63,253 bases of DNA from Stx2-converting phage Stx2a_F422: the sequence record AP012531. One strand, written 5' to 3'. Below are positions 57,001-60,000 of this stretch, piece by piece. The stretch's first letter is position 1, and each line of letters starts with the position of its first letter. The position numbers were made by a program.

Positions 57001-60000
57001 AGCAATGCCTTTGTTCGTACGCTGGGGAAAGTTAACCGCTTCCTGGCAACGGTGAACACGTCGTATAACCCGGAATTCCTGGTCAGTAACTTCATCCGTG
57101 ACGTGCAGACGGCGGTGATGAACCTGAAGGCGGAGCAGGGAAGGAGCGACGGTAAACTGAAAGGGCTGGATAACTTATCCGCCCTGGCTGTGGTGAAAGA
57201 CAGCCGTTCTGCCATGTCAGCCGTATACGCCAGTCTGCGTGGTAAAACCCTCACGGGAAAAGGTGCACAGTGGCAGAAGGTGTGGAAAGAGTTTGTTGAG
57301 GACGGAGGGAAAACCGGCTGGTTTAACATGGGTGACCTTGAAGGCCAGCAGAAGGAAATGGATCGCCTTGTCTCACTGGCGAAGGGGGGATGGAAAGGCC
57401 AGAGTATCGGTGCATGGAATTCGTTCCTTAACCTTGTCGAGGATGCCAACGGTGCGGTTGAAAACGCTCTGCGTCTTTCTGCCTATAAGCACGCCCGTGA
57501 TGCCGGTTTGTCACGCCAGCAGGCGGCGTCTCTTGCCAAAAACATGACGGTGAACTTTAACCGTCGTGGTGAGCAGGGGGCGCTGATGAATTCGCTGTAC
57601 ATGTTCGCCAACGCCAGCATTCAGGGAACGGCAAATCTGGTGAGAACGCTCGGACATCTTAATGGTGAGGGACCTTTACTGGAGCGCCTTCGCTGGAAGA
57701 ATCTGAATGTTCCGCAGAAAATCGCGCTTGCCGCTGTGGGAGCAGGTTATCTGCTTGGCTCGCTTAACCGCAGCGTGGCGGGTGAGGATGATGACGGGGT
57801 TAACTGGTATGACAAGGTGCCGTCTCATGTGAAAGAGCGTAACCTCGTCATTATGAAATCGGTGTTCGGGGGCAAGGCCGGAGAGTACTGGAGTATTCCT
57901 CTGCCTTACGGGTACAACGTTTTCTTCCTGCTCGGGCATACTGCTGAAGGTGTGGCGGCGGGTGACCTGACGGCGTCCCGTGCTGCCGGTAATGTTGTTG
58001 GTGGTGTGCTTGGTGCATTCAGCCCGATTGGCAGTGAGACGTCGGAAACACTGTCCGGGGCATTGCTGAAAAATGCAGCGCCGACCATTCTGCGTCCGTT
58101 TGCGAACCTTGCCATGAATGAAAACTTCATGGGGGCGCAGATTTACCAGGAGAACATGCCGTTTGGTACACCAAAACCTGACAGCCAGCTGGGAAGACGT
58201 TCAACGCCAGAAGCGTACAAGGCGTTTGCATCCTGGCTGAATGCGTTCTCAGGTGGCAGCCAGTACCGTCCCGGCGCGGTGGATATCACACCGGAATCGC
58301 TGAAATTCTGGATTGACTATATCTCCGGAGGGACAGGGCGCTTCATTTCCAAAACCACGGATGCGGCGGTGAAATCGCTGAATGGTATTGATATACCGGA
58401 ACAGCAGGTGCCCTTCCTGGGGAAAATTTCGGGGGAGGTGATGCCGTATGCAGACCAGCAGAAGATGTACGACCGGATGACAGAGATTGCGCAGTATCAC
58501 GCAGAGCTGAAGAGTCTGACCGGTGCAGAAAGAACGGCGTTCATTGACGAGAACAACGGAAAATTGTCGATGAACGGGCTTATGCAGGATACCCGGAAGA
58601 GACTGAAGGATTTGCGTAAACAGCGTGATGCCATTTACGCCGACAGTACTCTCAGTCTGGCGCAACAGTCGGCGATGGTGAAATCGGTAGAGCGGGATAT
58701 GAAAATTGCCGTGGATCGGTTTAACCGCGAGTACAACAAAAAAGTGGGAGTGGATTAACAGAAATGGCCCCGTACGGAAGTGCGGGGCTGATTAAGAAAT
58801 AAACACTCATTGACCTGTAATAACCGGAGCTATTAACATATAGTCAGAAGAGCATTTCATGTGATACAGAGAGCCGATTTATGTTTAATGAAGAAAAAGT
58901 TGCGCAAATGGCAGCGTATTTGCTGAAAAAGCATGGCGGATCTATGCGTTTCATTAAGCTGAAGCAGCAACGGTAATGGCGAATAGCATTTATGAGCAAA
59001 ATAATCTTGATATGTTATTAGGCGATCTGATGTAACCGGGATGATGTTCACCCCTTATCGCCGGGGAACAATACCGGCAATCAGAATTGCGGATGGAACT
59101 ATTCAGGCCCACGATGATATCGATGAGGAGTTTTTTCAGCCAGTATTGGATGGCTTTCTTATATCCAAATATACGCCATTTGACATCCTCCACGCCCTGA
59201 AGGACGGGGTTTTACAGCGCACCGGATAAGATTCGGTGTTTTGTTGAAAAATACTGTGATAACAAACAGAAAACCCGTCAGTAAGACGGGCTTAGCAAGC
59301 TGGGACGGTTACTTTAATAATTTCAGTGCCTTTACATCCACTTCAACACTGCTCAGGTCTTTATCAATTTCACCCTCAATTCTTACTTTGTCTTTCGGAG
59401 AAACATTCTGACCGGCCCATATGCTGTCATCGATATCCGTGACAATTGTCCCGCTATTGTCACGAAACTCATAACGTTCATCACCCACTTTTTTAACGAT
59501 GCTCCCTTCAAGGATAACCCATGCATCATCCTTCAGTTCTTTTGCCTGCGCTACTGTTGAACGCTCTGCTTCAGGCCCTTGGAAACCGCCCTGCTGTGCA
59601 AAAGCGCCAAAAGACACACCAGAAATAAGTGCTGCAATCAATACCTTTTTCATTCATAGTCCTCTTTCAGAGATGAACATTCAAACAGCATTTTCAGTAT
59701 GGTAAAGCGCGGGTGCGTTGAGGATGCCTGACACATCAGAGGTGGCGGGAGATTACTCCCCCGCTTGGTCTCTTACTTCTCAGATTCGTAGTCTACGAAG
59801 ACAGCGACCTCCGTCTGACCGGTTCGGATTCGCACCTCGCAGAGGTCTTTCCTCGTTACCAGTGCCGTCACTATGACGGTTAAACAGATGACGATCAGGG
59901 CGATTAACATCGCCTTTTGCTGCTTCATAGCCTGCTTCTCCTTGCCTTTCGGCACGTAAGAGGCTAACCTACATGTGTTCAGCATGGATTGAGCCTCAGA

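Follow-up and report, generated by a model that had tools for sequence, protein, structure and literature searches.

The stretch of DNA analysed here (the window, 63,253 nt) is sequence record AP012531 from the Stx2-converting phage Stx2a_F422. Its left end carries wrbA and the integrase gene and its right end is 100% identical to the chromosome of Escherichia coli EDL933, so the window represents a 933W/Sp5-type Stx2 prophage integrated in wrbA. On the minus strand it contains a gene for a YgiW/YdeI-family protein with the oligonucleotide/oligosaccharide-binding (OB) fold of the BOF family, located immediately 3′ of hokW/sokW, a functional toxin–antitoxin pair (PMC8621323). The features of this region are listed in Table 1. 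The BOF gene and the hok/sok locus form a fixed module. The hok promoter probably drives transcription of the BOF gene, whose protein is produced in the lysogen.

The gene has several names: L0136 or ST933Wp74 in phage 933W, ECs_1244 in the Sakai prophage Sp5, and Z1498 or EDL933_RS07020 in EDL933. The GenBank entry for 933W (AF125520) has described L0136 since 1999 as ‘similar to hypothetical YgiW and YdeI proteins’, so the identity of the gene was already known, and the RefSeq name is ‘YgiW/YdeI family stress tolerance OB fold protein’. What is added here to the known gene and family assignment is its obligate linkage to hok, its probable use of the hok promoter and its documented expression. 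UniRef lists exactly this protein sequence as A0A4P8BAV1, an accession labelled Z1498 in a study of the EDL933 secretome (PMC12962677). That label rules out the assignment of Z1498 to hokW, which a fixed offset between L and Z numbers would give. The locus is not covered by the explainable machine-learning paper on O157 or by the Pas small RNA preprint.

Table 1. Features of the hok/sok–BOF region, in window coordinates
Feature	Position	Strand	Basis and details
hok/sok–BOF mobile module	59262–60117	−	Bounds from homology between two prophage contexts and hok-only loci
BOF (YgiW/YdeI-family) open reading frame (ORF)	59309–59653	−	ORF listing; sole ORF at these coordinates; ATG start, 114 aa
Sec (type I) signal peptide	59597–59653	−	Residues 1–19, MKKVLIAALISGVSFGAFA/QQ; sequence features and SignalP ‘SPI’ (PMC12962677)
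OB-fold barrel	59315–59569	−	Residues ~29–113; five strands, short helix between strands 3 and 4; AlphaFold2, Foldseek
Intrinsic terminator of the BOF gene	59261–59293	−	9-bp stem, 5-nt loop, T-rich tail
Shine–Dalgarno sequence AAGAGG	59661–59666	−	7 nt 5′ of the ATG; kept in an 81%-identical variant
hokW–BOF spacer, 119 nt	59654–59772	−	hok post-stop hairpin and fbi element (59711–59723); no terminator-like site, no mapped sense start
mokW/hokW type I toxin frames	59773–59985	−	hokW 59773–59928; Pfam HOK_GEF, E = 4.6e-23; annotation
sokW antisense RNA	59977–60047	+	Annotation; Cappable-seq antisense start at 59977
hokW mRNA 5′ end, tac element GGGUGCUUGAGG	60086–60097	−	Rfam, fold, Cappable-seq start at 60097

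The BOF gene and its product

A sequence-only reading of the window had proposed that an exported BOF-family protein is encoded here, with its own terminator, and that a domain search should detect the fold. The ORF list returns exactly the frame and strand that were proposed, and the domain search does find the BOF fold. The product matches Pfam BOF (PF04076; E = 5.1e-33; score 113.7 bits, cutoff 25.8) over profile positions 10–102, covering 93 of 103, and NCBIfam NF033674, the YgiW/YdeI stress-tolerance OB-fold family, at 136.4 bits against a cutoff of 35. The TIGR00156 cutoff is passed narrowly (110.8 against 108.15 bits). An AlphaFold2 model based on 41 homologues has a mean predicted local distance difference test score of 84, with values above 90 across the five-stranded barrel. 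When this model is compared with the PDB by Foldseek, the top match is E. coli YgiW (1NNX; E = 2e-11, template modelling score 0.91 normalised to the target), followed by generic OB-folds (RPA, Stn1/Ten1), and a PDB search with the sequence returns the same entry (E = 3e-29). The evidence for the domain greatly exceeds what chance would produce.

The N-terminus has the make-up of a Sec signal peptide, with MKK, a hydrophobic core and a final AFA/QQ, and it lacks a lipobox cysteine. This part of the proposal is clear from the sequence and from the SignalP ‘SPI’ call published for the exact protein in an independent study (PMC12962677). The mature protein has 95 aa and an isoelectric point of 4.6. 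The product is therefore well supported as an acidic protein of ~10.5 kDa that is exported by Sec and carries the YgiW/YdeI-type BOF OB-fold. As judged from dN/dS, the ratio of nonsynonymous to synonymous substitution rates, which lies between 0.04 and 0.28 against variants 81–99% identical, the gene is under purifying selection.

The terminator attributed to the gene is present as well. Its hairpin, AAGCCCGTC-TTACT-GACGGGTTT at 59293–59271 on the minus strand, begins 16 nt past the BOF stop codon and is followed by TCTGTTTGTT. It is the sole terminator-like site on the minus strand within 58700–60400, and the first such site 3′ of the hok promoter.

The hok/sok–BOF module

The locus upstream of the BOF gene has the components of a hok/sok system: a Hok peptide, a Sok antisense RNA, and pairing between the 5′ end of the mRNA and its fbi element. 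Rfam RF01794 (hok/sok) matches with 113.5 bits, starting exactly at 60097, and the minimum-energy fold pairs the hok mRNA 5′ end with the 3′ fbi element (z = −6.3). Homology with hok-only phages ends at ~59710, just past CCTCAACGCACCC, which is the complement of the 5′ end GGGUGCUUGAGG. Together with the comparison of genomic contexts described below, this endpoint indicates a unit composed of hok/sok, the BOF gene and the terminator, spanning roughly 59262–60117.

The 1.6 kb around the BOF gene is 100% identical in phage 933W, Stx2 converting phage I and the PA-series phages, and the BOF protein is 100% identical in VT2-Sakai (Sp5). Parts of this 1.6-kb region occur in 278 phage records, of which only 44 contain the BOF gene, in each case with at least 99% identity. 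The majority of other Stx-phage records have only ~96 bases in common with the region, corresponding to the 3′ end of a giant tail-region gene. A 471-bp cassette (59230–59700) is found in 548 of 5,426 complete E. coli genomes (~10%), with 449 records representing a 97.5%-identical variant. Two copies of this variant, from EDL933 and from an O111:H8 strain, are located in other lambdoid prophages, within the nin region, where the gene order is DUF551–hok–BOF–90-aa ORF–DUF968–RusA–antiterminator. These nin-region copies keep the BOF terminator, and their homology to the window begins at 59262.

The linkage to hok is invariant in the viral sequences of IMG/VR. In each of the 45 loci with upstream sequence (of 47 found), hok lies immediately 5′ of the BOF gene at an unvarying distance. 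Downstream, the surroundings are of the nin type or of the 933W type, and the BOF variants range down to 81–82% identity. Two of the loci are recombinants: one (of L034 and L041) has a 933W-type sequence upstream of hok–BOF and a nin-type sequence downstream, and the other has the reverse arrangement. The module apparently provides a bridge of homology across which prophage regions undergo mosaic exchange. The matches to plasmid records look like excised phage circles or assembly artefacts, given the sizes of the records and their non-mobilizable typing.

Two neighbouring genes are of separate interest. A 50-bp stretch (59180–59229, plus strand) covers the 3′ end of the small ORF L0135, running up to the terminator hairpin of that ORF and overlapping its start. 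HK97, BP-4795 and many Stx1 phages have this stretch at 96% identity but have nothing else in common with the surrounding sequence, so it may represent a recombination junction or a conserved terminator. The giant ORF L0134 (50338–58758, plus strand) encodes 2,806 aa that include an LPD5 domain and a zincin-like motif, HEWFH. It lies upstream of the converging terminators, and its 3′ end is the last sequence common to most other Stx-phage records in the search.

Transcription and expression in the lysogen

In two hok-only loci, HannyBb and PPompW_699, a canonical terminator (CCCGCTTCGGCGGG followed by T5GT5) begins 9 nt past fbi. The BOF-linked hok loci are without this terminator, and in them the BOF Shine–Dalgarno sequence and ATG are reached ~57 nt after hok homology ends. 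A scan of the minus strand in the hok–BOF interval found neither a sigma-70 consensus site nor a terminator. Start sites mapped in EDL933 by Cappable-seq (PMC10469882) were related to the window by an offset of 1,332,170 (EDL933 coordinate = window coordinate + 1,332,170), which was verified on both genes. In that study a start site is associated with a gene if it lies within 250 bp upstream, and none is associated with the BOF gene in any of the 8 conditions. The hok strand has start sites at 60097 (EDL933 1392267) and 59986 in all 8, with read scores of 20–55, and hokW mRNA has been detected in Sp5 lysogens before induction (PMC8621323). The missing terminator at the linked hok loci and the lack of a start within 250 bp upstream together suggest that the BOF gene is promoterless and is probably transcribed from the hok promoter.

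The Cappable-seq data contain further start sites in the module. An internal sense start at 59518 (minus strand; EDL933 1391688), 135 nt into the BOF ORF, appears in all 8 conditions with scores of 7–23. On the opposite strand, a start at 59667 (EDL933 1391837) lies 14 nt 5′ of the BOF ATG and is seen in 7 of the 8. It faces the hok 3′ untranslated region and fbi, with a weak promoter (CTGCAA-17-CATAGT) within the 5′ codons of the BOF gene, and may belong to an unannotated antisense RNA against the hok–BOF junction. The second hok-strand start, at 59986, is likewise strong; it is 1 nt 5′ of the mokW ATG and directly opposite the sokW start at 59977, and may mark a mok transcript that is leaderless or may have arisen artefactually through duplex processing. 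SnoRNA-like Rfam matches in the region are weak, far below their gathering scores, and were disregarded.

The minus strand carries the N gene, the recombination genes, xis and int, all directed toward attL. After excision and circularisation, int–attP is followed on the same strand by ant, L0141, L0140, L0139, hokW and the BOF gene, which places the BOF gene on the pL (early-left) strand, distal to int–attP in the leftward direction. We take this 933W-type position to correspond to the ‘b-region/ea’ position of phage lambda. In the nin context the module shares its strand with cro and the replication genes. The module is therefore co-directional with early transcription in both contexts.

The BOF gene is expressed in EDL933. 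Published RNA-seq data (PMC4048457, Table S4) give Z1498 a value of 207 reads per kilobase and per million mapped reads (RPKM) in lysogeny broth (LB), where surA has 193 and background is ~0.14. The prophage neighbours Z1494, Z1495, Z1500 and Z1501 have values of 12, 14, 59 and 27 in the same medium. Z1498 is active in 10 of 11 conditions, and its RPKM differs between conditions, for example 457 at 15 °C as against 37 in spinach juice. In LB with antibiotics its log fold change (logFC) is +0.4, and that of Z1433, Z1434, Z1441 and Z1501 is 5–7 (PMC4048457). The pair L0139/L0140 (Z1500/Z1501; window 60219–61273) behaves unevenly in this condition: Z1501 has a logFC of 5.1, Z1500, which comes next downstream, goes to 0 and the BOF gene is unchanged, so leftward transcription may, on induction, end between L0140 and L0139.

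The protein has also been detected. A 2026 proteomic study of EDL933 culture supernatants (PMC12962677) identified 33 BOF peptides, 18 of them unique. The supernatant level falls by log2 2.3 in a type II secretion system (T2SS) mutant (−log10 Q 3.0) and is unchanged in type I (T1SS) and type III (T3SS) mutants. Expression in the lysogen, which had been suggested as a check, is thus documented by both the RPKM of 207 and the 33 peptides. It is well supported that the BOF protein is made in the uninduced lysogen and that its transcript does not rise in LB with antibiotics.

These results refine the description of the gene as cargo outside the regulatory logic of the phage. The cargo status itself stands: like a moron, the gene is carried by some related phages only (44 of 278), is transcribed well above its prophage neighbours and, in the published data, is expressed while the prophage is repressed, with no dependence on lytic induction. 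It does not stand as an isolated moron, because it forms the 3′ half of a fixed hok/sok–BOF module and is apparently promoterless. Its position outside phage logic is likewise only partly upheld: the gene is not co-induced in LB with antibiotics, but it lies on the pL strand here and on the cro/replication strand in the nin-region copies.

Function and relation to known systems

Our preferred reading, held with moderate confidence, is that the BOF gene is a lysogenic-conversion gene driven by the hok promoter, whose exported product would aid tolerance of envelope stress. RNA polymerase would start at the constitutive hokW promoter (60097), pass the hok 3′ end, where the terminator of the two hok-only loci is missing, and continue through the BOF ORF to the terminator at 59293–59271, yielding a transcript of ~836 nt from which the BOF protein would be translated by means of its own Shine–Dalgarno sequence. 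In the periplasm the protein would bind cationic antimicrobial peptides or other envelope stressors, as its relatives YgiW, YdeI/OmdA and SipA suggest, and would work with outer-membrane porins to raise the envelope-stress tolerance of the lysogen. By this analogy, a periplasmic factor for envelope-stress or antimicrobial-peptide tolerance that benefits the lysogen is the most likely function. Mutants of ygiW and sipA are sensitive to H2O2 and Cd and complement each other reciprocally, and SipA binds antimicrobial peptides and OmpA (PMC6370654); it is the sole BOF-family member shown to bind such peptides directly. YdeI/OmdA contributes to resistance against antimicrobial peptides and is associated with OmpD, and PMC6370654 cites Pilonieta 2009 for YgiW–OmpF and YdeI–OmpD interactions.

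Several points weigh against this reading. The case for co-transcription across the hokW–BOF junction is indirect, and the internal start at 59518 could yield a short 3′ transcript ending at the BOF terminator that inflates the RNA-seq signal. EDL933 has a second BOF copy in another prophage, 97.5% identical and with one residue different, so RNA-seq reads and peptides may stem from either copy. Detection of the protein is confined to culture supernatant, in which many cytoplasmic proteins are also found (PMC12962677); cytoplasmic and periplasmic proteins behave alike there, and the data therefore demonstrate production of the BOF protein and not its residence. Our literature search found no deletion, complementation or binding study of this gene. 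Identity to YgiW and YdeI is just 47% and 36%, respectively. The phage clade is without the first GF repeat and has Leu in place of Trp in the KDW motif, so its ligand or partner may be a different one. Finally, the host chromosome already has both ygiW and ydeI.

The best-placed alternative, which we nevertheless regard as unlikely, is an independent moron whose adjacency to hok is mere co-inheritance. Its own promoter would be condition-specific, responding for example to PhoP, PmrA, QseB, Rcs or RpoS, or else weak or atypical enough to have escaped mapping. Classic morons have their own promoter and terminator, and the BOF gene has the latter. Chromosomal BOF genes are regulated by two-component systems, and the RPKM of the phage gene differs between conditions such as 15 °C and spinach juice. 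A weak candidate promoter (TCCTCA-17-CATACT) can be read by eye upstream, but we do not claim it, and the consensus scan found no sigma-70-like site on the minus strand. Only ~57 nt lie between the end of hok homology and the ATG, and Cappable-seq places no start within 250 bp upstream. Loose linkage would also not be expected to keep hok upstream in 45 of 45 loci, across two contexts and diverged alleles.

A functional coupling of the two genes can be envisaged in a stronger and a weaker form. In the stronger form, which is doubtful, the BOF protein is translated from a 3′ extension of hokW mRNA as part of a three-part module of toxin, antisense RNA and periplasmic protein. The long-lived, translationally silent hok mRNA would act as an expression platform for the BOF gene, and BOF translation or the BOF protein would in turn set the timing of Hok activation, either because the 3′ region with fbi would be protected from trimming by exonucleases or because the protein would bind the periplasmic tail of Hok; the antisense start at 59667 would add a layer of control. 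The weaker form, in which the BOF protein or its translation simply modulates the hokW toxin and thereby the timing of lysis or phage release, is improbable. It would use similar routes, with the protein binding the Hok periplasmic tail or BOF ribosomes guarding the 3′ part of hok mRNA from activating trimming. The invariant order and spacing of hok and BOF, the shared transcript suggested by the mapping data, the affinity of BOF proteins for small cationic membrane-active peptides and the effect of hokW–sokW on Sp5 lysis and release (PMC8621323) would all fit such a role. However, at least four hok loci function or occur with no BOF gene, and a second prophage BOF lineage (P0047, described below) is not beside hok. 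The BOF alleles have also diverged by ~20% while hok remains >95% identical, a pattern that looks like cassette exchange and not co-evolution.

Superinfection exclusion or receptor masking, in which the BOF protein binds and alters a porin or BamA so that phage adsorption or injection is reduced, is equally improbable. Prophage genes at such positions often have exclusion functions, and phages have acquired BOF genes at least twice. The porin contacts reported for the family (YgiW–OmpF and YdeI–OmpD, from Pilonieta 2009 as cited in PMC6370654, and SipA–OmpA, from PMC6370654 itself) are in keeping with it. The protein has no match among the PADLOC defence models, its PHROG (1230) lacks a function assignment, and we found no experimental hint of exclusion. 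The module also occurs in prophages with differing downstream contexts, the nin region or the tail-gene end, which argues against one specific receptor. Least probable of all is a secreted factor that passes the periplasm by way of the T2SS and acts outside the cell: the protein is abundant in EDL933 supernatant and declines in the T2SS mutant as the known substrate StcE does, with T1SS and T3SS mutants unaffected (PMC12962677), but the periplasmic or envelope proteins CpdB, PotD and Pal and cytoplasmic proteins drop similarly, the effect is non-significant with host cells present, and general leakage or lysis is the simpler reading.

The hok–BOF linkage bears on two sets of published results. 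An Irish case-control genome-wide association study of 2025 (PMC11950266) found ‘ygiW_2’ and the mokC-like ‘group_5720’ to be jointly associated with haemolytic uraemic syndrome (HUS; adjusted odds ratio ~5.5), and its authors asked how the two genes interact without noting a physical link. The Sakai gene adjoining ECs_1244 is annotated ‘regulatory protein MokC’, and we infer that the pair is very probably the two halves of the hok–BOF module (59309–59985), whose fixed structure likely explains the joint association. In our view the association itself probably reflects hitch-hiking, with the module as a marker of prophage type or lineage. The published hokW–sokW::kan replacement and hokW-3FLAG construct modify the region between the hok promoter and the BOF gene (PMC8621323). 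If the BOF gene does depend on the hok promoter, the lysis and release phenotypes reported for hokW–sokW may be partly polar. The gene is an ordinary member of its family, in one of the best-studied Stx phages, and its importance is modest; it does provide enterohaemorrhagic E. coli with an abundant, exported, prophage-encoded protein. The literature examined contains no mention of a type I toxin transcript that expresses a lysogenic-conversion gene.

The closest characterised relative is E. coli YgiW (b3024; 1NNX), the founding BOF protein, known in Salmonella as VisP. It shares the Pfam and TIGRFAM family, the OB-fold, the Sec signal peptide and an acidic mature protein with the phage product, and is its best PDB match by sequence and by structure. 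The two proteins are 47% identical (114 aa for the phage protein and 130 for K-12 YgiW), a value at which we rejected a recent copy of host ygiW as the origin of the gene. The phage protein has a single N-terminal GGFxGP repeat, whereas YgiW has two, and absence of the first explains the difference in length; the phage protein also has KDL where YgiW has KDW. The gene for YgiW is chromosomal and divergent from qseBC, while the phage gene lies 3′ of hok in a prophage; neither the qseBC-divergent position nor the duplicated N-terminus expected of a YgiW orthologue is found. In the alignment of 41 sequences, the phage clade lacks a segment of 13–16 residues that includes the first GF repeat and has KDL, with KDW in all other aligned homologues shown. 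YdeI/OmdA (E. coli b1536 and Salmonella), the source of the antimicrobial-peptide hypothesis, is likewise a periplasmic BOF-family protein. It is 36% identical to the phage protein, which scores 63.7 bits against a cutoff of 179 for the YdeI equivalog NF007471 and is therefore not a YdeI orthologue. SipA of Vibrio cholerae (VCA0732) is also a periplasmic member of the BOF family, but its gene lies on the chromosome and responds to polymyxin, which induces it via a two-component system, whereas the phage gene has no such regulator nearby and no mapped promoter.

The closest relatives with known context (55% and 58% identity) are both mobile, one in a prophage and the other beside ISL3 transposase genes, and the variants with 81–82% identity are located in prophage nin regions. 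The second lineage, P0047 (130 aa, 55% identical; E. coli loci L061–L063, gene at 5001–5393), resembles the phage gene in being BOF cargo of an E. coli prophage. It differs in retaining the long N-terminus and KDW, in being unlinked to hok, and in its position as terminal cargo after J–lom–stf–tfa (tail-fibre assembly) of lambdoid prophages, next to host genes. P0047 is thus a distinct prophage BOF lineage, which indicates that phages took up BOF genes at least twice. The lambdoid morons bor, lom and sodC offer the nearest parallel in genetic organisation, since they too are small genes for envelope proteins that are carried by some phages, expressed in the lysogen and provided with their own terminator. 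Morons by definition also have their own promoter, in place of which the BOF gene appears to use that of the neighbouring type I toxin.

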